A stretch of DNA of 34,685 bases from contig PKWB01000036.1 in the NCBI GenBank assembly GCA_003131685.1, positions 3,846-38,530 on the forward strand, given 5' to 3'. The position numbers were made by a program, and so were the translations under genes. Below, piece by piece: positions 20,214-34,685 of the stretch (position 1 is its first letter; the number at the start of each line of letters is the position of its first letter). Origin of the DNA: Candidatus Dormiibacterota bacterium (GTDB lineage: Bacteria; Chloroflexota; Dormibacteria; Aeolococcales; Aeolococcaceae). A model generated the notes under the pieces. It was not told the origin of the DNA, searched no databases, and was given only the letters and a program-made list of their open reading frames with translations.

Positions 20214-20377
20214 GTATTCCCGCAACATTCAGCGGGAGGTGTTTACGCGTGACGAATGTGGCGTCCTAGACTAGGTCAGTCACTCCTTGCCTGCGGGTGT
20301 CTCGCCGTGTCCACCATCGCGAGGGAACTGGTCAAACGGGCGCTCGCGGTACGCCCCGAATTCGAATCCGTACCCGC

Positions 20378-20425
20378 GCCCTCGCACGGCAGAGGTCAGG
20401 GGTTCGAATCCCCTCCGCTCCACCA
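20378..20425 (+). mobile_element. 3' fragment of tRNA-Ala(CGC), probable att site of a genomic island
   Basis: gcc-ct-CGC-ac-GGCAG-AGGTC-AGGGG-TTCGAAT-CCCCT-CCGCTCC-ACCA gives the anticodon loop, T-arm, acceptor 3' strand and CCA. No D-arm or 5' acceptor strand upstream. Confidence 0.85.
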
Positions 20426-20446
20426 CCGGCTTCCTGGAGCCGGTTT
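20426..20446 (+). terminator. Probable intrinsic terminator after the tRNA 3' end
   Basis: CCGGCTT-cctg-GAGCCGG hairpin followed by TTT. Confidence 0.5.
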
Positions 20447-20521
20447 CGAATTCGATTCTCAGCATGGACGCGCGCCATCGCGCTGCTCACTCGGTTCCTC
20501 CACGGTAGACTTGAAACAGAC

Positions 20522-20595
20522 GGCGATGGAGCTCGCCGAAACCGCCTTCGTGACTGATGGCTCCTGTTCACGGCCCTAGCTGGGAGAACAGGAGC
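20522..20595 (+). ncRNA. Fluoride (crcB) riboswitch RS1 with expression platform
   Basis: GGCGATGGAGCTCGCC..AAACCGC..CTGATGGCTCCT; pseudoknot GGAGC/GCTCC. GCTCCTGTTC(20560-69) pairs with GAACAGGAGC(20586-95), hiding the SD. -10 TAGACT at 20506. Confidence 0.9.
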
Positions 20596-20600
20596 ACGCC

Positions 20601-22229
20601 ATGGCAGACGGAACATCCCAGGACCCCGACCTGCTCGGCGGCCAACCGGGCAGCGCCAGCGGCGAACCGCCTTCGACGTCAGCGCCGCCCGCTCCTCACT
20701 TCACGAGCCTGCTGTTTGACGAGTCGTCGGGGAAGGCGGCTGTCCGACGCGAAGATCGCTCATCCGCATCTGACCTGAACCTCGACCAGATCGTCAAGAC
20801 CGTCACCGGAGTCCGGGAGGAGCGCGATTTCATCGCGGCCCTTCTTTACCAGCAGCTCGGCGACATCGATACTGTGCACTACCGCCACGAAGTCTATCGA
20901 GACTTGGAAGACCAGTCGCTCCTCGAACGGATTCAGCAATTTGCTGACCTGATGAGCAAGGTGCGCAGCCACCTGGGACAGGTCGAGAAGATGCAGTATC
21001 TTCATCAACGCGAGGGGTGGTTCCTGGACGCAGCCTCTATCTACTGTGATGCCGTCCGCGCCCTGGCGGATGGTCTGAGTTCTGCGCGACTCGATTCCCG
21101 CGCCCTTCGTGCTTTCAGCGCGTTCCTGACGGGTTATGTCGCGTCCGCGACATTCGAATCTCTCGTTGCCGATACGAGAGATCGGCAGGATGCGCTTGCT
21201 CAGATCCGCTATTGCATCCGCATCCGGGGCGGAAGAGTCGACGTGAGCCGCTACGAGGACCAAGCCGACTACAGCGCTGAGGTGCTGAAGACGTTCGAGC
21301 GATTCAAGCAGGGTGCCGTCAAAGACTACCGACTCAACTACCGCACGTGGCCGGGCATGAACCACGTCGGGGCACAGATCCTTCAGCTGGTGGCGCGGCT
21401 GTTCCCTGACGAGTTCTCGGCATTGGATGACTACTGTCGCCAGCACGCCGAGTTCCTGCACGAGACCGTCCGGCGCTTCGAGCGTGAGCTCCAGTTTTAT
21501 CTCGCCTATCTCGATTACATCGGCCCGCTCCGAGCAGCCGGACTCAGCTTCTGCTATCCGGATGTGACCGCGGCCTCGAAAGAGATTTTCGCCAACGACA
21601 CCTTCGACCTGGCGCTCGCCAAGAAACTGGTCTCGGAGGGCAAGCCTATCGTGCGTAACGATTTCCGCATGGAGGGTCCCGAGCGCATCTTCGTGGTCTC
21701 CGGGCCGAACCAGGGAGGCAAGACGACGTTTGCCCGAGCGTTCGGTCAGCTCCACCACCTGGCCAGCGTTGGCTGCCCCGTTGCCGGCACTGCCGCTCGT
21801 CTTTTCCTCTTCGACCGGCTCTTCGTCCATTTCGAGAGGAAGGAGGATCTCACGAACATGCGCGGCAAGCTGGAGGACGACCTCGTGAGGATCCGAAAGG
21901 TACTGCAGGCGGCAACGTCCAACAGCATCGTCGTCATGAACGAGATCTTCACGTCGACGACGCTGAGCGACGCTCGCTTCCTGGGCAAGAAGGTGATGGA
22001 GAAGGTCATCCAGCTCGATGTGCTGTGCGTCTACGTGACATTCGTCGACGAGCTGGCGTCCCTCGGCGAGTCAGTCGTCAGCTTGGTAAGTACGATCGTT
22101 CCAGAGAACCCAGCCCAGCGCACCTACAAGGTGGTCAGGGGACCCGCCGACGGGCTCGCTTATGCGCTGGCTATCGCTGAGAAGCACAACGTCACTTACG
22201 AGCGTTTGCGGGCACGGCTGAGCGCATGA
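20601..22229 (+). CDS. MutS-related ATPase (domain V), first of a tandem pair
   Basis: GPNQGGKTT, FDRLFVHF, GKLEDDL, VVMNEIFTSTT. No mismatch-binding domain I or Smr domain apparent. Confidence 0.9.
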   Translation: MADGTSQDPDLLGGQPGSASGEPPSTSAPPAPHFTSLLFDESSGKAAVRREDRSSASDLNLDQIVKTVTGVREERDFIAALLYQQLGDIDTVHYRHEVYRDLEDQSLLERIQQFADLMSKVRSHLGQVEKMQYLHQREGWFLDAASIYCDAVRALADGLSSARLDSRALRAFSAFLTGYVASATFESLVADTRDRQDALAQIRYCIRIRGGRVDVSRYEDQADYSAEVLKTFERFKQGAVKDYRLNYRTWPGMNHVGAQILQLVARLFPDEFSALDDYCRQHAEFLHETVRRFERELQFYLAYLDYIGPLRAAGLSFCYPDVTAASKEIFANDTFDLALAKKLVSEGKPIVRNDFRMEGPERIFVVSGPNQGGKTTFARAFGQLHHLASVGCPVAGTAARLFLFDRLFVHFERKEDLTNMRGKLEDDLVRIRKVLQAATSNSIVVMNEIFTSTTLSDARFLGKKVMEKVIQLDVLCVYVTFVDELASLGESVVSLVSTIVPENPAQRTYKVVRGPADGLAYALAIAEKHNVTYERLRARLSA

Positions 22230-23812
22230 AAGCCTATCTCCTCCACCAGGAGCAAGACTTCAACTTCGTCGCTGACCTGCCCCCCAATCACGACGACCTG
22301 ATTCAGGACCTGGAACTGACGACGCTGCTCGAGGCGATGGCCCTCGGCGACAAGTTCCTCTACGAGGTGTCAGCGAGAGTCGTCCTGGCAAGCCTCGGCG
22401 ACCCGGAAGCCATCCTCTACCGCCAGCGAGTCCTCGCGGACTGCATCGCTGAGCCGGAGATCATCAGAGAGATGTACGCCATCGCCGTGGGCGCGCTCGA
22501 GGACAAGCGAGGAATCTGGGGGTACGGCTCCCAAAGCCCTTCGCTGATCCTCTCTGCCGCGGTCCGCCAGCTCGAGGCCGCCGTCATCCGGCTCAAACAA
22601 CTGCGAAAGATAGCCGACGACCGCGCGGAGAGGTTCCACTCCGCCGGCTTGACGACGCTCTTTCGCACTCTGCAGCGTGAATTGGACGACGAGTACTTCA
22701 TGACGATGGGCTACCACCTGAAGCAGCTCCGCTTCCGCAATGGGGAGCTGCTCAGTGCGGAACTCGATCGGGACAACAGTGGGATCGGCTTCGTGCTCCG
22801 CTCATCTGGCAGCGTGAAACGGAACTGGAAGGAACGCCTGGGAATGGGCTCTCGTTCCTCGTACTCGTTTACCATCCCGCCGCGTGACGACGCGGGTGCC
22901 AACGCCCTGTCAGATCTCACCAGTCGAGGGATCAACCTCGTCGCCAACGCGGCGGCCCAGTCCGCAGACCACATTTGGAGCTACTTCACGATGCTCCGCG
23001 GGGAGTTGGGCTTCTACGTAAGCTGTCTCAACCTTTGCAACCGGCTCGCAGTCAAGGAGGTGCCGATCTCGTTTCCCGCACCGTCATCGTGGTCCCAGCG
23101 CGTGCTTTCGTTCTCCGGCTTGCGCGATATCTGCCTCGCGCTGCGTGCGGAGCAGCGGGTCGTTGGAAACGACATCGAGGCGAACGGAAAATCGCTGATC
23201 ATCATCACCGGCGCGAACTCCGGAGGAAAGTCGACGTTCCTGCGCAGCGTCGGTCTGGCTCAGCTCATGATGCAGTGCGGCATGTTCGTGGCCGCGGAGG
23301 CCTATTCCGCGAGGGTGTGTGGCGGAGTCTTCACGCACTTCATCAGAGAAGAGGACTCCACCATGACCAGCGGGCGACTCGATGAGGAGCTGAGCCGCAT
23401 GAGCTCGATCGCGGATCAAATCCGTTCCCATTGCCTCATGCTCTTCAACGAGTCCTTCGCCGCTACCAACGAGCGCGAGGGATCCGAAATCGGGCGCCAA
23501 GTTGTCCGTGCGCTGCTGGAGGCTGAGATTACGGTGTTCTTCGTCACCCATCAGTTCGATTTTGCGAACGGATTCCACAGCCAGCGCGCAGAGTCCACCC
23601 TCTTCCTGAGAGCCGAGCGACAATCCGAGGGCCAGCGCCGCTACAAGCTCGCGGTAGCCGAGCCACTTCCGACGAGCTTTGGCGAAGATGTCTACTACCA
23701 GCTCGGCGGGTGGCTGGACAGCGACGAGGACCCCGACTCGCCCTCGGGGAGCGCGAGGGAGGCCTCGGCCAGCAACCTCGACACCAGCGGTCGCGTCCGA
23801 CAGGCTGAATAA
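22226..23812 (+). CDS. MutS-related ATPase (domain V), second of a tandem pair
   Basis: GANSGGKST, AQLMMQCGMFV, GRLDEEL, LFNESFAATN, VTH. ATGA overlap with the partner gene. Confidence 0.9.
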   Translation: MKAYLLHQEQDFNFVADLPPNHDDLIQDLELTTLLEAMALGDKFLYEVSARVVLASLGDPEAILYRQRVLADCIAEPEIIREMYAIAVGALEDKRGIWGYGSQSPSLILSAAVRQLEAAVIRLKQLRKIADDRAERFHSAGLTTLFRTLQRELDDEYFMTMGYHLKQLRFRNGELLSAELDRDNSGIGFVLRSSGSVKRNWKERLGMGSRSSYSFTIPPRDDAGANALSDLTSRGINLVANAAAQSADHIWSYFTMLRGELGFYVSCLNLCNRLAVKEVPISFPAPSSWSQRVLSFSGLRDICLALRAEQRVVGNDIEANGKSLIIITGANSGGKSTFLRSVGLAQLMMQCGMFVAAEAYSARVCGGVFTHFIREEDSTMTSGRLDEELSRMSSIADQIRSHCLMLFNESFAATNEREGSEIGRQVVRALLEAEITVFFVTHQFDFANGFHSQRAESTLFLRAERQSEGQRRYKLAVAEPLPTSFGEDVYYQLGGWLDSDEDPDSPSGSAREASASNLDTSGRVRQAE

Positions 23813-23947
23813 CAGCATTACGCTGCCTCGGACGACATCGCTCCGACCCTGTCTCTCGAGCGCTAGAACGCATCTGACGTGACGAGATGATTCTCAACCG
23901 AATCGACCGAGGCGTCGGATCCGATGTTCAGTGGTAGAGTCCCGGCT

Positions 23948-24031
23948 GGCGATGGGGCTCGCCACGGCACCGTGGGTGCCGGAAACGCGCTGAGCTAATA
24001 GCCCCTGACCACCATTAATGTGGAGGTTAGG
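23948..24031 (+). ncRNA. Fluoride riboswitch RS2 with expression platform
   Basis: GGCGATGGGGCTCGCC..AAACGC..GCTAATAGCCCCT; pseudoknot GGGGC/GCCCC. The CCTGACC..GGTTAGG hairpin covers GGAGG. Extended -10 TGGTAGAGT at 23932-23940. Confidence 0.85.
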
Positions 24032-24073
24032 GTGCCCGTCGCCATCGCAGTTGGACGACCAGCCGGATGCTAG
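24032..24073 (+). CDS. Putative 13-aa leader ORF (MPVAIAVGRPAGC)
   Basis: GTG lies 5 nt after GGAGG; the ORF end overlaps ATG 24067 (ATGCTAG). Confidence 0.4.
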   Translation: MPVAIAVGRPAGC

Positions 24074-25014
24074 CGGCCGCACTCGGCCAGTGCGTTGCAG
24101 TGGCGACCGTCCTGCTGCTCGCGCCACTCCTCAAAGGAGGCATCGACAACCTCAAGGCGAAGATCCAGTCGCGGCGGGGACCGTCCCCGTTCCAGCCCTA
24201 CTTCGACCTGCACAAGCTCTTTCGCAAGGAGCGTTCGGCGAGCCGGGATGCCTCCTGGGTCTTTCGGAGCGCACCCTACGTGGCGTTCGCAGCGCCGATA
24301 GCCTTTGCGATGTTGATCCCGGTGCTCACCGCAGCGCCACTGAGCTGGGCGTTCATGGCCGATATGGTGGGTAGTGGGTTCGTCATCGGCATCGGTGGCT
24401 ACTTCACCAACCTCGCTGCTATGGACAGCGCCAGCCCCTACGGTGGACTCGGAGCAAGCCGCTCCCGGCTTGTGTCATCCCTCGCGGAGCCGACGCTCAT
24501 CCTCATCTTCTTCGCGATCGGGTTCATCTCGGGTGGGACGGTCCCGTTCGTCGCGAACAACATCCTATACACCACATCCGCGCTGATCTCACCCAGCCAC
24601 GCGTTGATAGCGGTCGCGTTTTTCCTGGTCGTCCTCGCTGAGGCGGGCCGCCTCCCGATCGACAATCCGAGCACGTCACAGGAGTTGTCGATGATCGAGG
24701 CCTCCAGGCTCTTCGAATATTCAGGGCCCGACCAGGCACTGATGGAGTGGGGAGGATGGATGAAGCTGTTCGTGCTCCTCATCGTCTGGCTCAACGTTCT
24801 GATTGCCCCGGACGGCCTCGCCACTCAGTTGACCGTCTCTGCATTCGCCATCGCGATCGCGAGCCTCGCAGCCAAAATGCTGTGCGCTGCATTACTCATC
24901 GTGGGGGTGGAGTCGGCTCTTGCCAAGATCCGCATCCTGCGAGTGCCCGAGTATCTCGGCGGCACTTTCGTGCTCTCGTTCCTGGCGGTCGTGATGTACA
25001 GCCTGGGGCGCTGA
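24067..25014 (+). CDS. hyfC: Ehr/Hyf membrane subunit, NuoH/HycD/HyfC-like
   Basis: KAKIQSRRGPSPFQPYFDLHKLFRKE, LAEAGRLPIDNP, EYSGPD; multiple TMs. Confidence 0.92.
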   Translation: MLAAALGQCVAVATVLLLAPLLKGGIDNLKAKIQSRRGPSPFQPYFDLHKLFRKERSASRDASWVFRSAPYVAFAAPIAFAMLIPVLTAAPLSWAFMADMVGSGFVIGIGGYFTNLAAMDSASPYGGLGASRSRLVSSLAEPTLILIFFAIGFISGGTVPFVANNILYTTSALISPSHALIAVAFFLVVLAEAGRLPIDNPSTSQELSMIEASRLFEYSGPDQALMEWGGWMKLFVLLIVWLNVLIAPDGLATQLTVSAFAIAIASLAAKMLCAALLIVGVESALAKIRILRVPEYLGGTFVLSFLAVVMYSLGR

Positions 25015-25661
25015 TGGCACTCGCAGAGGCGGTGCTCGCCACGCTCATCCTCATCGCCACGTTTGGGCTCCTGATCGCGCGACAAGTCCGCGGCGCGATC
25101 ACCGGGTATGCGGCGCAGTCGATCCTCCTCGGGGGGCTCGCGATCGCGATGTTCGCGGGCTCGCGTTTGCCACATCTCCTTGCCTTGGGACTCCTCACGA
25201 TCGGCATCAAGGGTTTCGCCATACCGGCGGTCGTCAGGTTCCAGGTTCGGGGGCCCACCTACCGCCGGCGCGAGATCGCCTATTACGTCGGCTTTCCGAC
25301 AGCGTTGCTCGTCGGCGCCGGCCTCTCGCTCGTCGGATTGGTTGCCGCATCGCGCCTGCCGTTTCATCCCTATCTGTTGTCGGAGCCCGTGCTCGGCCTG
25401 GCCATCGCGGTGATTTTGCTCGGCCTATTCACCACCATGGCGAGACGTGACGCGGTGCTGCAACTCGCAGGCCTCCTCGCCGCGGAGAACGGAGTGCTGC
25501 TCGTCGGGTTGGTGGTGAGTCCGGAGTTGGGCTTGCTGATCGAGTTCGCGCTTGTCCTCGATGTCGTCATCGGGGTTGCGGTGATGGGGTTTCTCATCGC
25601 TCGGATGCACGAGACGGTCGCGAGCACGGACACGTCTGAACTTTCGAGGCTGCGCGGATGA
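25014..25661 (+). CDS. hyfE: Ehr/Hyf membrane subunit HyfE-like
   Basis: YAAQS, IKGFAIP, LLAAENG, C-terminal LSRLRG. TGATG coupling at 25012-25016. Confidence 0.88.
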   Translation: MALAEAVLATLILIATFGLLIARQVRGAITGYAAQSILLGGLAIAMFAGSRLPHLLALGLLTIGIKGFAIPAVVRFQVRGPTYRRREIAYYVGFPTALLVGAGLSLVGLVAASRLPFHPYLLSEPVLGLAIAVILLGLFTTMARRDAVLQLAGLLAAENGVLLVGLVVSPELGLLIEFALVLDVVIGVAVMGFLIARMHETVASTDTSELSRLRG

Positions 25662-27133
25662 CCGACCCCGGACTGCTCGTACTGGTGGTGGCCCTCCCAC
25701 TGGTGGCCGCGCTCATCAGCCTCGTCTGCTCCGCTCGTCTTCAGATAGCGCTGGCGCTCGTGTTCCAGGTCGGGACGTTCGGCGTCGCGCTGGCGCTGAT
25801 CGCCCGCATATTGGTGGTGGGGAGGATCGATGCCTTCGCGCACTGGCTCTACCTCGACAGCCTTTCGGCCGTCGTCATGCTCGTAGCGGCGGTCGTGTCT
25901 GTGCTCGCAACGTTTTACTCCGCGGGATATCTTCGCCACGAGCTGCAGCATCGAGTCATCAAGACCGACGAGCTGCGCAAGTACTTCGTCCTTTTTCATC
26001 TGTTCGTCTTCGCCATGCTGCTGGTCACCATTGCGGGGAACCTCGGGTTGCTCTGGACGGCGATCAGTGCCACGACGTTGGCGTCAGCTCCTCTCGTGGA
26101 CTTCTATGGCTCCCACGAACCGCTCGAGGCCGCCTGGAAGTACATCGTGCTCACCGTCGCCGGCAGCCTGCTCGCGCTTCTCGGACTGCTCCTGCTCTAC
26201 CAGTCCGGAGTGGCATCGCTCGGCAACTCATACGACTTCTCGATCCCTGTGCTCGCCGGCGCGGCATCGCATCTCTCCCCGACACTGGCGTCCACAGCCT
26301 TCCTGCTCATTCTCGTCGGCTTCGGCACCAAGGCTGGGCTGGCTCCCATGCATACCTGGCTCCCCGACGCGCATAGCCAGGCGCCATCACCCATCTGCGC
26401 GATGCTGTCCGGTGCCGAGCTGAACTGCGCGATGCTCGGTATCTTTCGCGTCTACACACTCACTGCACCGGCCGCAGGTGCCGCGACGCTGCGCACCGGC
26501 ATGCTCGTCTTCGGGCTCGTGTCCATGAGCGTCGCGGTCGTTTTCTTGATCAGCCAGCGCAACTTCAAACGCCTGCTTGCGTACTCCTCCGTCGAGCAGA
26601 TGGGGTTGATCTCGGTTGGCGTCGGGCTGGGGAACCCGGTGGCGCTGATCGGCGCACTCCTTCTGGTGGTCACGCACGGCTTTACCAAGTGCCTCATGTT
26701 CTTTGCCACCGGCAATCTGGTGCTCCGGTTCCGGAGCACCACGATCCCGGAGATACGAGGAGTCGTCAGGGCGATGCCGTGGACTGCGGTGCTCCTGATC
26801 GGCGGCGCCCTCGCCATTGCCGGGGCACCGCCCTTCGGCGTCTTCATCTCGGAGTTTTCCATCATCGCAGGCGCATTTGCAGGCCATTTCTGGGTGCTGG
26901 GCGCGCTTGTCGCGGCGCTCCTCCTGCTCGGGTTCATCCCGCTGGTCGCGCCATTCCACAGAATGACGTTCAGCAACGCGGACACCGGTGGCGAGGTGGC
27001 TCAGGCAGAGCTGAGCGCCGTGACGCTGCTGCCGGCGCTGGTGCTGCTGGGCGCAGTCCTGGTGATCGGCGTGTGGATCCCGAATCCCCTCAATCAGTTG
27101 CTCCACCACGCCGCGGCGGTGATGACGAGATGA
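25658..27133 (+). CDS. hyfF: Ehr/Hyf antiporter-like subunit HyfF
   Basis: LEAAWKY, GFGTKAGLAPMHTWLPDAHSQAPSP, KRLLAYSSVE, GAPPFGVFISEF. Confidence 0.92.
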   Translation: MTDPGLLVLVVALPLVAALISLVCSARLQIALALVFQVGTFGVALALIARILVVGRIDAFAHWLYLDSLSAVVMLVAAVVSVLATFYSAGYLRHELQHRVIKTDELRKYFVLFHLFVFAMLLVTIAGNLGLLWTAISATTLASAPLVDFYGSHEPLEAAWKYIVLTVAGSLLALLGLLLLYQSGVASLGNSYDFSIPVLAGAASHLSPTLASTAFLLILVGFGTKAGLAPMHTWLPDAHSQAPSPICAMLSGAELNCAMLGIFRVYTLTAPAAGAATLRTGMLVFGLVSMSVAVVFLISQRNFKRLLAYSSVEQMGLISVGVGLGNPVALIGALLLVVTHGFTKCLMFFATGNLVLRFRSTTIPEIRGVVRAMPWTAVLLIGGALAIAGAPPFGVFISEFSIIAGAFAGHFWVLGALVAALLLLGFIPLVAPFHRMTFSNADTGGEVAQAELSAVTLLPALVLLGAVLVIGVWIPNPLNQLLHHAAAVMTR

Positions 27134-28668
27134 CCACACTGCGCGAACTGGCCCAGAAATTCGGCCTCGCGATCGAAGGGGGCGCGCCTCAGGAGCTGCG
27201 GACCCAGTGCGCTCCAGAAGAGTTCCTGGGCGCCGTCACAGCGCTCGCGGCCGAAGCTGTGCTTGCGGACCTTTTTGCCGTCACAGGCCGCGGCCAACCC
27301 TCGCTGACTGTTGTATTCGAGTTGGCGGGCGATGCTGAGTGGCTCGTGCTCCGCACCCAGCTGAGCGGCGATTCCTTCCCATCGCTGACACCCTCCACTC
27401 ACGTCGCGAGCTGGTATGAGCGCGAGATCCGCGAGATGCACGGTTTGAATCCGGTGGGACACCCGGCTCTGGCGCGACTGCGCCTGCACGACTGGCCCGT
27501 GGGTCAGCCGCCGATGCGCGCGGCGCTGGAACGCAGGCTCGACGTCGGGCCCGGCGTGCCGAGCCCGGTCCCGATAGTCCATGGGCAGGGCGTGTTCCAG
27601 CTGCCCCTCGGGCCGGTGCGAAGCGGTCCGCAGGAATCCGGTGAATTTCTCTTCAACAGCGGCGGGGAGGATCTCGTCGCGGTCAGTCAGTTGCTGGGCT
27701 TCAAGCTCCGTGTCGTCGAGCGTTTGGCGGAGGGGCGCACCGTCGATCAGGCGCTCATGCTCGCGGAGCGGCTCGCGGGTGTCTCCGCGTTCTCCAACGC
27801 GCTCGCGTTTGTGCAGGCAGTGGAACGGGCGATGGCAGTCGACGTCGGTGAGCAGTCCCGGGCGGCGCGGACCCTGATGAACGAGTTGGAACGCTTGCAC
27901 AATCACTTCGGCGATATCGCTCGTCTCGCTGACGCGACCGGGCTGATGGTCGCGGGTGCGCAGTACGCGTCCCTGAAAGAAGAAGTGCTGCGCCACTGTG
28001 CCGCCTTGACCCAGCATCGGTACCTGCGCGGAATCCTGGCTGTGGGAGGCCTGCAGGCGCCGCTCCCTGATGCTGCGTTGCACGCCCTGCGAAGGCGGCT
28101 CGCGGACTGGCTTCGGCGCAGCGAGCGGCTGGAGCGGCTGCTGGAGGACACGGCAGTCTTCGTCGACCGTGTGGAAACCACCGGCGTGCTCACCAAGGAG
28201 TACGCGGCACCACACAACCTGGTGGGCCCGATCGGACGCTCCACCGGGGCGGACAGGGATTGTCGCCGCGATCATCCGTATGCGGGATACGACCGGGTGA
28301 CTTTCGACGTGCTCGTCAAATCGCAGGGCGACGCGCTGGCGCGTCTCAGCGTCCGTCTGTTCGAGATCCGACAATCGATCCGGATCATCGAGCAGGTTTT
28401 GGAGGCATGGCCGGGATCGGACGTGGCGGCGTCAGTGAGCGCGCCCGCCACCGGGGAGGCGCTCGGATGGTCCGAGGGCGCCGGCGGCGAGACCCTGCAC
28501 TCGGTGGCGCTGACCGCCGATGGGCGGATCGCGCGCTGGCGCGCCCGCCCTCCTGCGTTCGTCAACTGGCATCCGTACGCAGAGGCATGTGCGAGCGGCA
28601 ACAACCTGACCGATTACCCGGTAATCGAGGCGAGCTTCGGGCTTTCGCATGCGGAGTTCGACCGGTGA
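27130..28668 (+). CDS. Ehr large subunit (NuoC+NuoD/HycE-like) lacking Ni-binding cysteines
   Basis: WYEREIREMHG (NuoC-like), ELERLHNH, GPIGRSTG, GDALAR. The L1 site reads ERLAGVS and the L2 site SFGLSHAEFDR (no CxxC). Start ATG 27130. Confidence 0.9.
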   Translation: MTTLRELAQKFGLAIEGGAPQELRTQCAPEEFLGAVTALAAEAVLADLFAVTGRGQPSLTVVFELAGDAEWLVLRTQLSGDSFPSLTPSTHVASWYEREIREMHGLNPVGHPALARLRLHDWPVGQPPMRAALERRLDVGPGVPSPVPIVHGQGVFQLPLGPVRSGPQESGEFLFNSGGEDLVAVSQLLGFKLRVVERLAEGRTVDQALMLAERLAGVSAFSNALAFVQAVERAMAVDVGEQSRAARTLMNELERLHNHFGDIARLADATGLMVAGAQYASLKEEVLRHCAALTQHRYLRGILAVGGLQAPLPDAALHALRRRLADWLRRSERLERLLEDTAVFVDRVETTGVLTKEYAAPHNLVGPIGRSTGADRDCRRDHPYAGYDRVTFDVLVKSQGDALARLSVRLFEIRQSIRIIEQVLEAWPGSDVAASVSAPATGEALGWSEGAGGETLHSVALTADGRIARWRARPPAFVNWHPYAEACASGNNLTDYPVIEASFGLSHAEFDR

Positions 28669-29501
28669 GCCGCTGGATTGCGCTGGGGATCCGCACGGGT
28701 GTCCGGAGCACACGCTATCCCTCGCGTCCCGATCCCGAAGCCGAGATCGCTCCGTCGGCTGTGACCGTGGACATCGCGGCGTTGTCAGCGGTGCAGGCTC
28801 TGGAGGCGGCTGACATGTGCCCGACGACCGCGATCACCGCGGCGGGTGACCGCGACAAGGGCAGCATCGCATTCGATGCCGGCCAATGCGTGATGTGCGG
28901 TCGGTGCGTGCGCGCCTTTCCGGCCGCATTCTCGTATGGTCACGGTCCGGAAGTTGCGGTTCACTCAAGGGAGGCCCTTCGGGTCGCCGCGCACTGGGCC
29001 GACGGCTCTGGTCCCGCGGTCGACGAGACGGCCGTGACCGACGAGTTGCAACGGCGTTCCCAGGCCCTCTTTCGGCGTTCTCTTCACATCCGGCATGTGG
29101 ACGCCGGATCGTGCAACGGGTGTGAGTCCGAACTGCAGCTCCTCGGCAGCCCGCAGTACGACCTTAACCGGCTGGGGCTCTTCTTCACGCCGACGCCTCG
29201 CCACGCCGACGCGCTGCTCGTGACGGGCGTGGTGACGCGGCAGATGGAACAGCCCCTCAAGGACACGTACGAGGCGATGCCCAGTCCAAAGCTTGTCGTG
29301 GCAGCGGGCGTCTGCGCCGTCGGCGGTGGAGCTTTCGAGGGTGGGTTCATGGTCCGCGGACCGCTCGACCGGATCCTCCCCGTCGACGTCTATGTCCCCG
29401 GGTGTCCGCCGACGCCGCTCGCTCTGCTCCATGGGCTCCTGCTCGCCGTCGGACGCGCTGAAGAACGCTATCGCCCAGGTGGAGGCCCCCATGGCGCTTA
29501 G
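28665..29501 (+). CDS. Ehr small subunit (NuoB/HycG-like) with N-terminal ferredoxin (HycF/NuoI-like) domain
   Basis: GSCNGCE, PRHAD, GVCA, PGCPP; N-terminal MCP..CVMCGRC. Start GTG 28665. Confidence 0.9.
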   Translation: MSRWIALGIRTGVRSTRYPSRPDPEAEIAPSAVTVDIAALSAVQALEAADMCPTTAITAAGDRDKGSIAFDAGQCVMCGRCVRAFPAAFSYGHGPEVAVHSREALRVAAHWADGSGPAVDETAVTDELQRRSQALFRRSLHIRHVDAGSCNGCESELQLLGSPQYDLNRLGLFFTPTPRHADALLVTGVVTRQMEQPLKDTYEAMPSPKLVVAAGVCAVGGGAFEGGFMVRGPLDRILPVDVYVPGCPPTPLALLHGLLLAVGRAEERYRPGGGPHGA

Positions 29502-31578
29502 CCTGCTGTGGTACGGACTTGGCTGCCTCGGGATCGGCGTTGTCGGCGCTCTGGCCGTCCTGCGGCTGCCGTGGTTCATCTACGTCTCAGCCGCGGCCGG
29601 CGCCGTCGGGTGCGCCGTGCTCGCGTCCGCGGCGGGAGTGTGGCTGACCGGTGCGAGCGTCACGGCCAAGCTGCCCGCGAGCACGCCCATCGGTGCGTTC
29701 GAACTTCGCTCATCAACGCTCGGCGGCTTGTTCCTCCTCCTGATCGGGCTGGTCGGGATCGGCATCTTCGTGTACAGCGCCGCATACACCGCGCGACTCG
29801 GCGGGTATCCGCGGCAAGCGGCGAGTCTTGCGCTCCTCAATCTGACCTTCGCCGCCATGGTCATCGTGGTCGCCGCAGGCACCGCGCTCACGCTGCTCCT
29901 TGCGTGGGAGGCGATGTCCATCCTCACCTACGTCCTCGTCACGGTCGAGTTCGATCACCCGGGCCGACCTCAGGCAGCCTTTCTCATGCTCGCGCTGAGC
30001 GAGGTGGGCTTCGTGCTCATGGCCGTCGCTTTCGCGCTCATCGGCGCGCTCGCCCCGGGAGTGGATTTCGCCTCGGTCTCGGCCCATCACCTCACAGCGG
30101 CAACTGCGGGAACGGCATTTGTGCTCTTCTTCTTCGGCTTCGGTGCGAAGGCGGGGTTGGTGCCCCTGCAGGGCTGGCTCCCCGAGGCCCATCCCGCGGC
30201 TCCATCACACGTGTCGGCGCTGCTCTCAGCCGTGGTGGTGAAGATGGCGATCTACGGTCTCGTCCTCTCGGCCACCGTGCTGCTCGGCCCTCCGGCCTCG
30301 TGGTGGGGATACCTCGCCATCGCCGCGGGGGTGGTCACCGCTGCCTATGGGATTCTCTTCTCCTTGCTGGCATCGGACCTCAAACGGGCGCTTGCCTACA
30401 GCACGATCGAGAACCTCGGGTTCATGATCGCCATGCTCGGGGTCGCTTTGGTCTTCGCCGCTGCGGGACAGACTCTGCTTGCGGGCATGGCATTGCTGGT
30501 GGTCTGCTTGCACGCTCTGTATCACTCCCTCTTGAAGGGGGCGCTGTTCTTGGGCGCGGGCTCTGTCGATGTCGCCACCGGCATCCGCGACATGGACCAG
30601 CTGGGCGGACTCGCGAAGCGGATGCGGTGGACGACGCCACTCTTCTTCATCGGCGCCATGGGTCTCGCCGGCATCCCGCCGCTGAACGGCTTCCAGAGCG
30701 AGTGGCTCGGGCTGCAAACGCTGATCCGCGCCCACGACCTTGTCAACCCTGGAGATCGTGTGTACCTTGCGGCGGCCGGCACGGTGTTGACGCTCACGTT
30801 TGCGCTTGCGGTCACCACGTACGTCCGCATCGTTGGCGGAGCGTTCCTCGGCGCCCCGCGCACGCATTTCGCCAAGGAGGCGCGCGAGGTGCCGCGCGCC
30901 ATGGTGGTGGGGATGGCAATTCCGATCGTCGCAGCTGTGGCGATGGCGTTGGTGCCGCCGCTCGGGATCGGTGCAGCAGCGGCAGCCGCCCAGAGCGCAA
31001 GTGGAGCGCACGGGCTGTTGGACGCAGTGCTTCCACCGATCTTCACGCACCCGGACCAATTCGCCCCCGTGGTGCAGCTGGGTGGGTCGTTCCTCAGCCA
31101 GATCATTCCAGCAAACGGTCTGGTGATCGTCCCAACCAGCCTCAACTTCGCCTTCATCTCCCCGACCTACATCTTCCTCACGTTCGTCTTCGTGATCCTG
31201 GTCACGGCAGCCGTGTTGCGCATGCTATGCAAGCCGGGACGCCGCGAAACGCCAGTGTGGGTAGGGGCGGTGGCACAGCGCACGCCAACGATGCAGTACA
31301 CGGCGACCGCGTTTACCAACCCGTTCCGGTCGATCTTCGGAGGCGTCTACCGATCGCAACGCGAGGTCGAAGCGGACTACCAACAGGCGCCATTCTTCAT
31401 CCGAGGCATTCGCTACACACATCGCTTTGTCGAGCCCGTCGACACCTATATCTACCAGCCCGTGGTGCGCGCTGCACGGTGGATGTCTGATCGGTTTGCG
31501 TTTGTACAAGGGGGCAGTCTCAGTGTGTACGTGCTCTATCTCTTCGTGGTGTTCCTGATCGTTTTGCTGCTGCGTTAA
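29491..31578 (+). CDS. hyfB: Ehr/Hyf antiporter-like subunit HyfB/HycC
   Basis: GGAGG SD; AWEAMS, KAGLVPLQGWLPEAHPAAPSHVSALLS, LAYSTIEN, PPLNGFQSEW, MQYTATAF. Confidence 0.92.
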   Translation: MALSLLWYGLGCLGIGVVGALAVLRLPWFIYVSAAAGAVGCAVLASAAGVWLTGASVTAKLPASTPIGAFELRSSTLGGLFLLLIGLVGIGIFVYSAAYTARLGGYPRQAASLALLNLTFAAMVIVVAAGTALTLLLAWEAMSILTYVLVTVEFDHPGRPQAAFLMLALSEVGFVLMAVAFALIGALAPGVDFASVSAHHLTAATAGTAFVLFFFGFGAKAGLVPLQGWLPEAHPAAPSHVSALLSAVVVKMAIYGLVLSATVLLGPPASWWGYLAIAAGVVTAAYGILFSLLASDLKRALAYSTIENLGFMIAMLGVALVFAAAGQTLLAGMALLVVCLHALYHSLLKGALFLGAGSVDVATGIRDMDQLGGLAKRMRWTTPLFFIGAMGLAGIPPLNGFQSEWLGLQTLIRAHDLVNPGDRVYLAAAGTVLTLTFALAVTTYVRIVGGAFLGAPRTHFAKEAREVPRAMVVGMAIPIVAAVAMALVPPLGIGAAAAAAQSASGAHGLLDAVLPPIFTHPDQFAPVVQLGGSFLSQIIPANGLVIVPTSLNFAFISPTYIFLTFVFVILVTAAVLRMLCKPGRRETPVWVGAVAQRTPTMQYTATAFTNPFRSIFGGVYRSQREVEADYQQAPFFIRGIRYTHRFVEPVDTYIYQPVVRAARWMSDRFAFVQGGSLSVYVLYLFVVFLIVLLLR

Positions 31579-31701
31579 GCCCGTGCTCATCGCGATGCAG
31601 TCGATCGAACGAGCGCCAGCCATCCTCGCCGTGGCCACCCTCAGGGTCGCCAATTCGACATCCACCCCTGTGAAATCGAGGTACTCACAACCGGTGGCAG
31701 C

Positions 31702-33342
31702 TCAGCCTCCACGCAACGAGTGGCGAACGGACTCGACCCGGGCCCGAACATCGCTGGAATCAGCGATGGTCGCTTCGTGCCGTTCCGCCGCAAGCTCGGC
31801 CCGGGCAACCGCGCCGGCCAAGGCCTCACTGAGCCCGCGGGAGGATCGTTCCGCCTCGCGGATCCATGCACGAGCCGTCCGATCGACGCTTTGCAACGCC
31901 GCGTAGCGCAGCCGACCGGCAAGGCGGTCGGAGTCCTCGACCGCGCGTTGTTTGCGAGCTCGCTCCCGCCACCTCCTACCGACACCGCCGGGGACGCGAG
32001 CCCGGACCTGGCGTAGACCCATGGCCAGCGCACCCGGGTCATCCGCCAAGTCCACCCTGACGGCGTCCACGTTGACACGAGGTGAGACGTCGAACCCAGT
32101 GGGGAGAATCACGCCGTAGGCCTGACCGACCTCCGCGACAAAGCGCGTGGCCAGCTGCTGTACCCGCGCCGTATGCCGGTCGACCGGGCCACGCATTGCT
32201 GCAATGAGCGCTTCGCCCACCTCACGCCGCCACGAACCGGCGGCAGCTGCGGTTTGATCCGACCATGCAGCATCTGTCGCCGCGATCAGCCGAGGAGGTA
32301 GCGCTTCGCGCAGTTCGTGCGCTCTCGGCTCGATGACCGTGTCCGTCGCGCGCCGGCATGCTGCGAGGAGCAGCGCCGACTCCTCGTCGACTGCGACTGC
32401 GAGCGTGGCTTGCGCGGCTGCGAACGCCGTGCGCGCCGCCACTGCATCTCGTGCCGGCTTGGCTGCCGCCGCCGCTTCGAGTTGGAGCGTTGCGTCGACG
32501 AGCGACAACAGTGTCGTGGCAACGCGGACGCCACGCTCCTCCGAGAGGTTGGTCTGAGCAGCGGCGACATCGGTTTTTAGCCAGGCCGTCAGCGCTCCCA
32601 GACCGGTATCCCCACCTCCGCCGCGCGCTGATACGGCGAACACGGTGACATCCGACGTGCTGCACGGCTCCGCCACCCGGGCACGTACGAATTCAACCGC
32701 CTCCCGCGTCTCGCTCGGCGTCAGCCGATCGACCTTGTTGAGGCAGACGGCGATACGCGCGGCTGTGCGTGCCACGTCTCCGAGCAGTCGTGCTTCCGAG
32801 TCGGAGAGCGGGGCGTCCACGCTCAAGACGAGCAGCGCGACATCGACTCGAGGCAGAAAGTCAATTGCAGCCTGGGTGTTGTGGAGGTGGACACTGCCGG
32901 TGCCAGGCGTATCCACGAATATCAGGCCGCTCTCGAGCACCGCGGCCGGAAACTCGATGATCGCCTCGCGCACACCCTTACGGTTTCCCGGGTTCTCCTG
33001 CTCCGTGAGGTAGCCGTGTAGCCCCGCGATGTCGCTCGCCTCCTCCGAGCCGTCCAGGAGGCGGACCACTACTCGTGGCCGCATGCCGAAGCGCACCAGT
33101 GCCGGGACCGCAGTCACCGGGAGCACTCCCGTCGGCAGCAGCTCCGCACCGAGGAGTGCGTTGATGAGCGTCGTCTTGCCACGGTTGAACTCGCCGATCA
33201 CGGCGACATACAGGCCGCTCCCGGCGAGCTTGTCGGCTGCCTCCTCGGCAAGCTGCCGCTGCGCAATCGGCAGCAGTTCCAGCGATGCGAGCGTCCGGAG
33301 CCCCGCTTCGAGGGAGGCTCCGGCGGTGTGCGTGTCTCTCAC
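31702..33342 (-). CDS. Bacterial dynamin-like GTPase
   Basis: G1 GEFNRGKTT, G2 GVLPVT, G3 DTPG, G4 NKVD; helical Ala-rich C-terminal stalk. Confidence 0.9.
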   Translation of the reverse strand: MRDTHTAGASLEAGLRTLASLELLPIAQRQLAEEAADKLAGSGLYVAVIGEFNRGKTTLINALLGAELLPTGVLPVTAVPALVRFGMRPRVVVRLLDGSEEASDIAGLHGYLTEQENPGNRKGVREAIIEFPAAVLESGLIFVDTPGTGSVHLHNTQAAIDFLPRVDVALLVLSVDAPLSDSEARLLGDVARTAARIAVCLNKVDRLTPSETREAVEFVRARVAEPCSTSDVTVFAVSARGGGGDTGLGALTAWLKTDVAAAQTNLSEERGVRVATTLLSLVDATLQLEAAAAAKPARDAVAARTAFAAAQATLAVAVDEESALLLAACRRATDTVIEPRAHELREALPPRLIAATDAAWSDQTAAAAGSWRREVGEALIAAMRGPVDRHTARVQQLATRFVAEVGQAYGVILPTGFDVSPRVNVDAVRVDLADDPGALAMGLRQVRARVPGGVGRRWRERARKQRAVEDSDRLAGRLRYAALQSVDRTARAWIREAERSSRGLSEALAGAVARAELAAERHEATIADSSDVRARVESVRHSLRGG

Positions 33343-33346
33343 ACCG

Positions 33347-33400
33347 TCACAGCGCCAATTTCGCGCGATCCCCGATGGGGAGGGCTCGACAACTACCCAT
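33347..33400 (-). CDS. Putative 17-aa leader ORF (MGSCRALPIGDRAKLAL)
   Basis: ATG follows the hairpin-sequestered AGGAG; the stop is 4 nt before the dynamin GTG. Confidence 0.4.
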   Translation of the reverse strand: MGSCRALPIGDRAKLAL

Positions 33401-33404
33401 GCGT

Positions 33405-33473
33405 CTCCTACCAGTGACGCGGCTGGTAGGGCCCATCAGGCTCGCACGGCCATTGACGGCGGGACCCATCACC
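33405..33473 (-). ncRNA. Fluoride riboswitch RS3 with expression platform
   Basis: Minus strand GGTGATGGGTCCCGCC..CTGATGGGCCCTAC. CCTACCAG/CTGGTAGG hairpin overlaps AGGAG. TGtTATTCT -10 near 33497-33505. Confidence 0.85.
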
Positions 33474-33552
33474 GGGTCGCACTTCGCGGCGATCTCAGAA
33501 TAACACCGGCCGCCGCTCATGCAGGGCCGGCAGCGAGAGTACACTCAGACCC

Positions 33553-33618
33553 GGCGATGAGGCCCGCCTAAGCCGGGGTCCGGATGATGGCTTCTACCCA
33601 TGTCGATGCTGGGAGAAG
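33553..33618 (+). ncRNA. Fluoride riboswitch RS4 with expression platform
   Basis: GGCGATGAGGCCCGCC..ATGATGGCTTCTAC; pseudoknot GAGGC/GCTTC. CTTCT-a-CCCA/TGGG-AGAAG hairpin lies over the SD. -10 TACACT at 33540. Confidence 0.85.
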
Positions 33619-33622
33619 ACCA

Positions 33623-33649
33623 ATGCTGACACGCCACGGCCGTGCATGA
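33623..33649 (+). CDS. Putative 8-aa leader ORF (MLTRHGRA)
   Basis: ATG after GGGAG; the stop overlaps the USP start (GTGCATGA). Confidence 0.35.
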   Translation: MLTRHGRA

Positions 33650-34118
33650 GGTCATTGTCGTCTGCGTTGACGGCTCGCCCGGGGGCTATGCGGCCGTCGC
33701 CGAAGCCGCCGAACTCGCCTGCCGTTTCAACGCGCGACTGATCTCGCTCTCCGTCGAAGAGAAGCTACCAAAACATCCCGCCACCATGGGCGAGGTCGAC
33801 GAGTCCAAACGCGAGCAGGACTGGTACTTCGAAGGCGTCGAAGCGAAGGCCGCGGGGATCGCTCGCGAACATCACGCCACGCTGACATCTGAAGTGCGCA
33901 TGGGTTCTGCCGCGGAGGCGATCGTGCGTTTTGCCACCGAGGTCGGCGCAGATCTGGTCGTGCTCGGCTACAAGGAGCATTTCCGGATTCTCAATCTCGT
34001 GATGGGGACAACTGCCAGGAAGGTCAGCGCGGCAGCAAATGCGTCGGTGCTGATCGTCAAGACAGCGCGTGCAGACGTCGGGCGTCAACGTCTGCGTGAG
34101 TTGTACGGCTTGAAGTAG
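33642..34118 (+). CDS. Universal stress protein (UspA family)
   Basis: IVVCVDGS, GSAAEAIV..ADLVVLG, VMGTTARKV, SVLIVK. Confidence 0.92.
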   Translation: MHEVIVVCVDGSPGGYAAVAEAAELACRFNARLISLSVEEKLPKHPATMGEVDESKREQDWYFEGVEAKAAGIAREHHATLTSEVRMGSAAEAIVRFATEVGADLVVLGYKEHFRILNLVMGTTARKVSAAANASVLIVKTARADVGRQRLRELYGLK

Positions 34119-34136
34119 CTACGGGGACACGTCGAC

Positions 34137-34152
34137 TGGTACTATTAGTACC
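34137..34152 (+). promoter_or_regulatory. Extended -10 (TGGTACTAT) overlapped by a 15-bp palindrome
   Basis: GGTACTA-T-TAGTACC at 34138-34152, upstream of RS5 and the IclR gene. Confidence 0.6.
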
Positions 34153-34171
34153 GTCTCGCGTGTCGCGGTCC

Positions 34172-34236
34172 GGCGATGGGTCTCGCCGTGAAAGGCTTCG
34201 TGCCTGATGGGCCCTACCAGCTACCCCTGGTAGGAG
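34172..34236 (+). ncRNA. Fluoride riboswitch RS5 with expression platform
   Basis: GGCGATGGGTCTCGCC..CTGATGGGCCCTAC. CCTACCAG(34213-20) pairs with CTGGTAGG(34227-34), overlapping AGGAG. Confidence 0.88.
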
Positions 34237-34248
34237 AACCATCGAGCG

Positions 34249-34685
34249 GTGCCCAGACCGATTCAATCCATCGAACGAGCCTCGGCCGTCCTTCGATTGC
34301 TGTCGGGGCGCACCCGACGGCTCAGCCTCGCCGAGGTGGCGGGCGAGTTGGGCCTTCCCAAGGGCACCGTCTACGGGATCATGCGCACCCTTCTGTCGGT
34401 CGGCTTCGTCGAGCAGGATCCGGAGTCGGGCAAGTACCGGATGGGTGCAGCGCTCCTGCACCTCGGCAGCAGTTATCTTGACGGCAACGAGCTGCGCACC
34501 CGAGCGCTCAACTGGGCGGACTGGCTGGCCGCGCGTACCAACGAGAGCGTGCGTCTCGGCACCCTGCACGACGGTCAGGTGCTGCTCGTGCACCATGTGT
34601 TCCGCCCGGACAACAGCCCGCAGGTGCTCGAGGTGGGCGCGCTGCTGCCCATGCACGCGACGGCGATGGGCAAGGTGCTGCTCGC
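34249..34685 (+). CDS. gylR: IclR family regulator, GylR-like (glycerol operon regulator); 3'-truncated, absent from the ORF track
   Basis: Manual translation: VPRPIQSIERASAVLRLLSG..LSLAEVAGELGLPKGTVYGIMRTL..GFVEQD..HHVFRPDNSPQVLEVGALLPMHATAMGKVLL, closely resembling Streptomyces GylR as recalled. Confidence 0.85.
   Translation, partial: MPRPIQSIERASAVLRLLSGRTRRLSLAEVAGELGLPKGTVYGIMRTLLSVGFVEQDPESGKYRMGAALLHLGSSYLDGNELRTRALNWADWLAARTNESVRLGTLHDGQVLLVHHVFRPDNSPQVLEVGALLPMHATAMGKVLL

Follow-up and report, generated by a model that had tools for sequence, protein, structure and literature searches.

How might a bacterium meet fluoride when riboswitches of the fluoride class crowd one part of its genome and neither of the known fluoride exporters is found there? 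The question is raised by a stretch of 34,685 nucleotides (nt), hereafter the window, from a Candidatus Dormiibacterota bacterium (contig C125, positions 3846-38530; the assembly searched comprises 3.78 Mb and is 76% complete). A first-pass annotation, made from the letters alone, had placed five aptamers of the crcB/fluoride type at 20522(+), 23948(+), 33473(-), 33553(+) and 34172(+). Indeed, all five were found at these starts by a pattern search, and each heads one unit of the window: a pair of MutS-like genes, an operon for a complex resembling hydrogenases and complex I (Ehr-like, see below), a dynamin-like GTPase, a universal stress protein (USP) and an IclR-family regulator. A sixth lies about 460 nt beyond the window end, giving six crcB-motif aptamers in 14.7 kb of C125 (RS1 to RS6). 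We conclude that the region is very probably an accessory fluoride-response island, built of aptamer-controlled units with translational ON switches, in a lineage without Fluc or CLC-F.

Fluoride-type aptamers at the head of each unit

Run as a regular expression over the whole assembly, the motif of the first-pass annotation gave 16 matches. Six lie on C125, all with a complete pseudoknot of five pairs, which the remaining ten lack. The pseudoknot strands listed in that annotation hold exactly, with 5/5 pairs at each of the five window sites. It had also expected five hits from the Rfam Fluoride model (RF01734, gathering cut-off 34 bits), and in this it was mistaken: one of the five is found at Rfam's own threshold, which is thus unusable as the sole test. 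The scores were 46.1 bits for RS1, 32.8 for RS4, 30.5 for RS6, 25.1 for RS2 and 18.9 for RS5, and RS3 (12.8 bits, E 0.25) was detected only in a search of 151 nt. The model probably fails on the weak copies because it ignores the pseudoknot and penalises variants that covary on both strands.

A covariance model of our own, R1, was built from an alignment (A2) of 39 short-type aptamers, all from other genomes, namely the genomes of relatives and loci that encode homologues of MutS-like protein 1. A2 had replaced a MAFFT alignment of 53 aptamers (A1) in which helix P3 was misaligned. Over 54.7 kb (the window and the next 20 kb), with filters off, R1 returned RS1 at 69.3 bits, RS5 at 46.6, RS4 at 45.3, RS3 at 40.2, RS2 at 32.9 and RS6 at 27.2, and the next-best match had 16 bits. 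That match, at 14145-14191, was dismissed as noise: by eye it has no pairing 3' strand of P1 and no complementary pseudoknot. Across the genome R1 found seven sites in total, the seventh being on a separate contig (C179:6389-6442(+), 41.3 bits), where both the Rfam genome scan and the first regular expression had missed it.

Since R1 cannot reward pairing between pseudoknot columns, the pseudoknot was tested separately, on a set (A6) of 95 R1 hits at E<=1e-6 with 91 distinct sequences. It is 99.1% paired, with two-sided changes at four of its five pairs, and controls in which the strands were slid reached at most 54%. P1 pairs at 100%, all four of its pairs showing two-sided changes, and the values for P1 and pseudoknot were reached in none of 500 shuffles; P3 is 79-90% paired in this model-fitted alignment. 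Among rows that come neither from the present genome nor from A1, 40/47 have fully paired pseudoknots (shuffled mean 22.3, maximum 30). The sites of the genome itself have 4/4 P1 pairs and 5/5 pseudoknot pairs, the latter as four different pair sets. The structure of P1, P3 and pseudoknot, and its covariation, support the crcB/fluoride-type architecture that had been claimed.

Three sequence subtypes can be told apart. RS1 (20506-20600, plus strand; Rfam, R1 and fold) represents the first, which has a GGAGC pseudoknot and always precedes the MutS-like pair. It begins with a -10-like TAGACT (20506-20511), followed by the aptamer (20513-20573) with pseudoknot GGAGC/GCTCC and by a hairpin that pairs with the Shine-Dalgarno sequence (anti-SD hairpin), masking AGGAG ahead of the ATG at 20601. 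RS2 (23935-24031, plus strand; Rfam, R1 and fold) and RS6 (C125:38992-39072, minus strand, equivalent to window positions 35147-35227, with a regular-expression start at 35218(-); Rfam and R1) form an insert-bearing UAAUNG type. In RS2 a -10-like TAGAGT is followed by the aptamer (23939-24014), where a further hairpin separates P1 from P3 and the pseudoknot is GGGGC/GCCCC; an anti-SD hairpin masks GGAGG. Orthologues of RS2 precede the same operon in the relative G007 (locus L086), and aptamers of its type also occur in G039 and G034. The third, GGGUC type comprises RS3, RS5 and the C179 copy, which share the platform CCUACCAG/CUGGUAGG. RS3 (33401-33512, minus strand; Rfam and R1) has a -10-like TATTCT, the aptamer at 33420-33482, P1 GGUG/CGCC, pseudoknot GGGUC/GGCCC and the anti-SD hairpin of this platform; its orthologues in L039, G004 and G001 carry compensatory changes in P1 and P3. 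RS5 (34140-34248, plus strand; Rfam, R1 and fold) has a -10-like TACTAT, the aptamer at 34163-34223, pseudoknot GGGUC/GGCCC and an anti-SD hairpin of the RS3 type. RS4 (33540-33622, plus strand; Rfam, R1 and fold) has a -10-like TACACT, the aptamer at 33544-33603, pseudoknot GAGGC/GCUUC and an anti-SD hairpin.

It could be argued that some of the low-scoring variants (candidates are the GGGUC copies RS3, RS5 and C179, and the UAAUNG copies RS2 and RS6) sense another ligand or are decayed, given Rfam scores of 12.8-30.5 bits, the changed 3' core (UAAUAG or UAAUGG) and the extra hairpin of 15-25 nt in RS2 and RS6. However, several genomes conserve these variants, with changes in P1, P3 and pseudoknot that compensate each other, their GAUGG and CGCC cores are intact, and they head the same gene classes as the canonical copies. 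The GGGUC type precedes a Na+/H+ exchanger both in this genome and in G001, and the RS2 type heads an Ehr operon which elsewhere stands behind canonical-looking aptamers of GAGGC type. We therefore consider another ligand, or decay, very unlikely.

The genes that follow such aptamers elsewhere point to the ligand. In 57 related loci (939 kb) R1 gave 102 hits at E<=1e-3, 90 of them at >=25 bits. The gene following these 90 was MutS-like 1 in 32 cases, the first Ehr gene in 11, the dynamin-like gene in 8 (four of them after a small open reading frame (ORF) of 81 amino acids (aa)), the 81-aa ORF itself in 3, an MFS transporter in 3, a USP in 2 and another gene in 31; the MutS-like class is over-represented because the loci were chosen by MutS-like homology. 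Fifteen of the 31 other genes were run against Pfam, one of which had no family. The remaining 14 encode an enolase, an inorganic pyrophosphatase, CrcB, a Na+/H+ exchanger, two further USPs, a histidine phosphatase (phosphoglycerate-mutase-like), DUF190, DegV, GPR1/FUN34/YaaH, DUF6062, a metallophosphoesterase and two HTH proteins. The presence of this classical fluoride gene set behind the same type of aptamer supports fluoride as the ligand, and we infer that it is the ligand of the RNAs in this island.

Predicted translational platforms and leader reading frames

The claim that each aptamer has a -10 box upstream and a gene downstream agrees with what was found. A TANNNT hexamer lies 13-32 nt upstream of P1 in all six C125 copies (in four at -13 to -16), a pattern seen in 2.8% of random 30-nt windows of this genome, and each aptamer heads a unit. 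A scan for sigma-70 consensus promoters returned none. The terminator scan returned seven terminator-like sites against 7.8 expected, none of which forms an expression platform; one alone touches an aptamer, at P1 of RS1 and on the strand opposite to it. In minimum-free-energy folds of the six platforms, the 3' strand of the pseudoknot and the bases that follow it pair with the Shine-Dalgarno sequence in 6/6 cases (in RS1, for example, GGCUCCUGUUC is paired with GAACAGGAGC). These predicted folds, and their conservation, suggest that all seven aptamers act as translational ON switches.

The switches are predicted to work in two ways. At RS1, RS5, RS6 and the C179 copy, the ribosome-binding site that becomes exposed would be the gene's own. 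At RS2, RS3 and RS4 it would be that of a short leader ORF, and the main genes behind these leaders have no Shine-Dalgarno sequence of their own. The leader behind RS2 (24032-24073, plus strand) has 13 codons, and its TAG (24071-24073) overlaps the ATG at 24067 of the first Ehr gene; that behind RS3 (33347-33400, minus strand) has 17 codons, and 4 nt separate its end from the GTG that opens the dynamin-like gene; and that behind RS4 (33623-33649, plus strand) has 8 codons and overlaps the GTG at 33642 with which the USP starts. The first of them was read directly from the sequence. The place and length of the leaders are kept in G007 and L039, and in two of the three the peptide is kept too. 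Thus the RS3 leader retains 11 of 17 residues in L039 (counted by hand) and the RS4 leader reads MLTRHGRA here and MLTRHDHA in L039; the RS2 leader of G007 is equal in length and in its start/stop overlap and has a different peptide. Since each leader runs into the main start codon or stops right beside it, translation of the Ehr operon, of the dynamin-like gene and of the USP would be coupled to that of the leaders.

Taken together, each aptamer would start a short transcript of its own, the predicted 5' end lying 1-4 nt ahead of P1. In the absence of ligand the 3' pseudoknot strand and the next bases would pair with the Shine-Dalgarno sequence; with Mg-F bound, that strand would be locked in the pseudoknot and the ribosome-binding site freed. 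In the Ehr, dynamin-like and USP units the freed site would be that of the leader ORF, and the main gene would follow by coupling.

A lineage without canonical exporters and the genes behind the aptamers

No Fluc or CLC-F gene had been seen in the window at first, which proved correct, and the assembled genome has neither: CRCB (PF02537) gave no match in the window or in the genome. Its single CLC, a protein of 708 aa with a long C-terminal extension past the CLC core, is ClcA-like (E 6.4e-53 against ClcA 1kpl and 2.5e-13 against CLC-F 6d0j), and neither Rfam nor R1 finds an aptamer on its contig. The wider sample carries more weight. Six-frame searches covered 41 genomes of the order, of which 25 belong to the genus (this one included; 63-91% complete) and 16 to a sister family. 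CRCB was found in 0/25 and 0/16, and the same search was positive in 11/14 control genomes. Among relatives, the distribution of CLC orthologues does not follow that of the aptamers: aptamers without CLC or CrcB are seen in G001, G006 and G007. It might be objected that a canonical exporter is present and was missed, either in the unassembled 24% of the genome or as a protein too divergent for Pfam CRCB. CrcB proteins are short and easily overlooked, and CRCB is found in 2/6 genomes from other genera of the family and in 75/151 genomes sampled across the phylum. Against this stand the counts of none in genus and sister family beside the positive controls, and the finding that CLC hits in the order are ClcA-like orthologues that do not follow the aptamers. 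We regard a missed exporter as improbable.

What, then, do the switches control? The gene identities proposed at first were borne out: the MutS pair matches MutS_V, the Ehr operon resembles complex I and hydrogenases and lacks NiFe ligands, and the other two genes match Dynamin_N and Usp. The unit behind RS2 has six genes on the plus strand: a NuoH/HyfC-like membrane subunit (24067-25014; Pfam NADHdh); a HyfE-like small membrane subunit (25014-25661; 60.8 bits to the NCBIfam hydrogenase-4 membrane subunit, under its cut-off); an antiporter-like subunit of NuoN/M and HyfF/D type (25658-27133; Proton_antipo_M); a NuoC+NuoD fusion resembling the HycE large subunit (27130-28668; best PDB match HycE 7z0s_E, E 1.4e-53); a protein joining a ferredoxin-like part with one 4Fe-4S motif to a NuoB/HycG-like small subunit in which four Cys are kept (28665-29501; Pfam Oxidored_q6 and Fer4_7, NCBIfam NuoB family); and a HyfB/NuoL-like antiporter-like subunit of 695 aa (29491-31578; NCBIfam hydrogenase-4 subunit B at 503 bits, under its cut-off of 667). 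The domain set of the operon is accordingly NADHdh, HyfE-like, two copies of Proton_antipo_M, Complex1_30kDa with 49kDa, and Oxidored_q6 with Fer4. An arginine-rich, low-complexity ORF of 660 aa at 29508-31490(+) has no Pfam hit and was discarded as a high-GC shadow of the HyfB-like gene.

The large subunit lacks the NiFe-ligating cysteines: the CGIC of HycE aligns with AGVS, and the last 60 residues contain no CxxC. With these cysteines replaced no hydrogenase chemistry is expected, and the complex is hydrogenase-related rather than a hydrogenase. Compared with E. coli formate hydrogenlyase and hydrogenase-4 (HycE 7z0s, Hyf), it has the same subunit set (HyfC/NuoH, HyfE, HyfF/D, the HycE fusion, HycF+HycG and a HyfB-like subunit) but neither the NiFe cysteines nor formate dehydrogenase or hyp genes nearby. 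A six-gene complex without a NiFe site fits the complexes called Ehr, for energy-converting hydrogenase related. Its most plausible role is redox-driven translocation of H+ or Na+, which would counter acidification by hydrogen fluoride (HF).

Behind RS1 stand MutS-like protein 1 (20601-22229, plus strand, 542 aa), which has MutS core, clamp and ATPase (Pfam MutS_V only; AlphaFold2 and Foldseek), and MutS-like protein 2 (22226-23812, plus strand, 528 aa; Pfam MutS_V), whose gene overlaps the stop of the first by 4 nt. To the NCBIfam MutS and MutS2 models the pair scores 50-71 bits, far under the cut-offs of 400-642. An AlphaFold2 model of protein 1 (34-row alignment, pLDDT 79.9) matches MutS, MSH and MutS2 structures in the PDB over core, clamp and ATPase (Foldseek E ~1e-16, TMq 0.46-0.57). 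Neither Pfam, for both proteins, nor the model alignment, for protein 1, shows the mismatch-binding domain I or the connector domain II. The two are thus predicted to be clamp ATPases without mismatch-binding or connector domains. With MutS2 and MutS/MSH they share the predicted core and lever, the clamp and the ABC-type ATPase, and the paralogues stand side by side as in MSH heterodimers; they differ in lacking mismatch-binding, connector and Smr/KOW domains and in being restricted, within the genus, to aptamer-bearing genomes. Their products may form a heterodimer-like clamp-ATPase pair.

The dynamin-like GTPase (31702-33342, minus strand, 546 aa) matches Pfam Dynamin_N over residues 46-193 (E 1.6e-23) and has no strongly hydrophobic segment (hydropathy maximum 1.46). 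The USP (33642-34118, plus strand, 158 aa) matches Usp at E 3.2e-22. The regulator behind RS5 (34249-34685, plus strand) continues past the window end and is broken by an NN. Its earlier label, GylR, could not be upheld beyond membership of the IclR family (Pfam HTH_IclR and IclR_C), and no glycerol genes were noticed nearby. The window itself ends (34685) at this NN (C125:38531-38532), where sequence may be missing; the frame continues past it, the protein seems short (about 200 aa) and IclR_C is matched in two stretches.

Beyond the window, RS6 heads a conserved ORF of 81 aa (C125:38729-38971, minus strand). Its 68 homologue clusters are all annotated as hypothetical; it matches no Pfam or NCBIfam family, the best ESM Atlas score (0.75) is uninformative, and its AlphaFold2 model (pLDDT 81) has no Foldseek match in the PDB at E<=0.001. 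The ORF lies directly upstream of the dynamin-like gene in G007, G011, G022 and G006. A predicted complex of the two proteins scored 0.00, which weighs neither way. Divergent from RS6 and this ORF, and with no aptamer of its own, is the gene for an MFS transporter of 428 aa (C125:39118-40401, equal to L010:1119-2405, plus strand; Pfam). The four genomes with an orthologue (this one, G004, G007 and G039) all bear aptamers and have the gene in or beside the island; G004 has the dynamin-like gene, the MFS gene and the MutS-like pair co-linear behind one aptamer, and distant MFS homologues lie directly behind an aptamer in L052, L053 and L067. The MFS protein is a candidate for the missing transporter. 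Finally, the seventh aptamer heads a Na_H_Exchanger protein of 403 aa (C179:6464-7675, plus strand, locus L106; Pfam), and a GGGUC-type aptamer stands ahead of such a gene in G001 too. The transporter picture of the first-pass annotation was therefore right for exporters in the window but incomplete, with an MFS gene just beyond it and a riboswitch-controlled Na+/H+ exchanger on C179.

In a lineage that has neither Fluc nor CLC-F, fluoride tolerance would probably rest on pH and ion homeostasis plus the functions of an NTPase module. The regulated products would be the MutS-like pair, the Ehr-like complex, the dynamin-like GTPase, the USP, the IclR regulator, the 81-aa protein and the C179 Na+/H+ exchanger; the regulator could extend the regulon and the adjacent MFS protein may contribute to tolerance. 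The Ehr-like complex and the exchanger would act on the proton and ion balance upset by HF entry, which is consistent with reasoning on antiporters in the part of a 2024 review that deals with them (PMC11139923).

An accessory island and its place among fluoride-responsive systems

The aptamer cluster is not an assembly chimera, as contigs of an independent metagenome assembly (X3) bridge 20360-30039 and 30205-34398 at about 98% identity. The stretch is present in peat, permafrost and soil metagenomes from 17 studies. The sole structural difference between X3 and the window is a spacer of 122 nt reduced to 20 nt. In runs X3 and X14 this spacer (31578-31701 in the window, where the Ehr operon and the dynamin-like gene end convergently) is swapped for about 20 other letters, a strain-level indel. 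At the left edge, the X3 contig matches the window only rightwards of 20360 and diverges to the left. Here a 3' remnant of tRNA-Ala, followed by a hairpin and a T-run, lies at 20378-20430(+); its 53 nt match the end of the intact tRNA-Ala(CGC) on the 3' side (C161:3159-3211) at 100% identity, and ARAGORN called no tRNA at this place. The remnant looks like a possible integration scar or strain breakpoint at the left edge of the island. A second copy, 93% identical, is found at C2:4566-4636. A tmRNA-like Rfam match at 20323-20425 was rejected; it is this remnant, and the real tmRNA is on C95.

MutS-like protein 1 is present in 15/41 relatives and, within the genus, exactly in the six sampled genomes with Rfam hits above the cut-off, which marks the island as accessory. 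The same genes recur with fluoride aptamers in other genomes. Forty loci with MutS-like 1, in records titled as Actinomycetota-labelled metagenome-assembled genomes, Dormiibacterota, Acidobacteriota and Alpha- and Deltaproteobacteria, have at least one aptamer in 32 cases, at least two in 15 and at least three in 9, with a maximum of six (L075, labelled Stellaceae). The dense arrangement is therefore recurrent rather than peculiar to this window, since 15 of these 40 loci elsewhere also have two or more. One of the related loci, L047 (CAWBNK010000030.1, 1611-20776), carries four aptamers in 19 kb, where two Ehr-like six-gene operons, each with an aptamer, flank one MutS-like pair.

Do the units form one system? 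The first-pass annotation had them as a single multi-component regulon. Co-regulation is supported; physical or functional unity is not, as the units are dispersed or reshuffled in relatives. They stand together in this genome, L039, G004 and G039, with gene order varying among the four, and apart in G006, where the MutS-like pair and the unit of small ORF and dynamin-like gene are about 1.1 Mb apart, and in G007, where the Ehr operon is on another contig than the MutS-like/dynamin unit. In the 40 MutS-like loci the partners co-occur in part: an Ehr-like operon in 16, a dynamin-like gene in 14, an MFS gene in 7, a USP in 3 and the small ORF in 1. It is quite possible, if not what we favour, that the units, each regulated by fluoride in its own right, came by chance to be gathered in one accessory island and do not cooperate as one system. 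However, MutS-like 1 and 2 are together in 38/40 loci, and the co-linear arrangement of dynamin-like, MFS and MutS-like genes in G004 has parallels across phyla, the MFS gene adjoining the dynamin-like one in L050, L052/L053 and L059.

Several points weigh against an aptamer-controlled fluoride-response island in an exporter-less lineage. Four of the five window aptamers are under the Rfam cut-off, which RS1 alone passes; RS1 has a C.A mismatch in P3, and RS2 and RS6 carry UAAU(A/G)G in place of UGAUGG and an extra hairpin of 15-25 nt. The E-values of R1 are rough, its training copies having been picked by a regular expression that required pseudoknot pairing, and the platform folds are minimum-free-energy predictions on short constructs. 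At 76% completeness, an exporter missing from this one assembly says little, so that the genus-level count carries the claim; the tallies include the unpublished genomes G027 and G078, without which 0/41 becomes 0/40 and 75/151 becomes 74/150. MFS orthologues occur in only 4/41 relatives. Any part that the Ehr-like complex, the two MutS-like proteins, the MFS protein, the dynamin-like GTPase or the 81-aa protein may play in a fluoride response is conjectural. Metatranscriptome contigs (X20), 90-99% alike, cover Ehr genes and 33448-33709 and may stem from DNA carry-over; they are a weak hint of transcription at best, and window parts without such contigs give no indication of silence. We nevertheless hold the accessory fluoride-response island to be much the best account.

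Parts of the gene content are known associates, as had been stated at first. According to the portions of the literature that concern them, crcB RNAs precede mutS and formate-hydrogenlyase genes (Weinberg et al. 2010, PMC2864571), formate hydrogenlyase and Na+/H+ antiporters are among the commonest associates of fluoride riboswitches (PMC11139923), and fluoride raises a USP 120-fold in E. cloacae FRM (PMC5533749). A literature search returned no paper tying fluoride riboswitches to dynamin-like, MFS or 'MutS-like' genes, though the tables and supplements of Baker et al. 2012 may already list dynamin, MFS or IclR. What seems to be new is how densely the switches are packed, their association with dynamin, MFS and the small ORF, and a lineage without exporters.

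With the published riboswitches of RF01734, those of the island share P1, P3 and pseudoknot, the conserved cores, the 5'-UTR site and the association with mutS-like, formate-hydrogenlyase-like, USP and Na+/H+ antiporter genes. They differ in number and spacing (six in 14.7 kb, each with its own unit), in having two subtypes under the Rfam cut-off, in platforms that look translational (anti-SD) rather than terminator-based, three of them through coupled leader ORFs, and in having no Fluc or CLC-F partner in the genus sampled. GI3 is likewise a horizontally acquired, riboswitch-controlled fluoride-resistance island with a USP, but there a single riboswitch serves six genes, among them crcB, enolase and pyrophosphatase; the present island has a riboswitch per unit and neither an exporter nor a fluoride-inhibited glycolytic enzyme. 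Methylobacterium DM4 and Streptomyces cattleya, which degrade or make organofluorines and in the relevant section of the review show 'extensive riboswitch-based regulation' (PMC11139923), also have multiple fluoride riboswitches per genome; by that description, the copies here differ in being packed in one island of a peat and soil lineage without an exporter.

To conclude, these riboswitches add members to a known class, and a known kind of system is varied here by the island, by platforms coupled to leader ORFs and by a setting without an exporter. The regulatory detail added is that of predicted anti-SD platforms working through coupled leader ORFs, and the Rfam cut-off misses most copies of such lineage-specific pseudoknot variants. 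A bolder and rather unlikely reading is that a mobile, riboswitch-saturated island supplies tolerance, with one membrane part (the MFS protein or the Ehr complex) as a third route of fluoride or HF removal and the NTPase module dedicated to fluoride damage control; its conserved core would be the MutS-like pair, the dynamin-like GTPase, the MFS protein and the Ehr-type translocator. MutS-like and hydrogenlyase-like genes have stood among the associates of fluoride riboswitches since 2010 without explanation. Together with its relatives, this locus outlines a module that recurs across phyla (MutS-like pair, Ehr complex, dynamin-like GTPase, MFS protein and small ORF). As the module is present in some close relatives and absent from others, in a genus with neither of the known exporters, it offers a natural contrast of presence and absence with a short list of genes.

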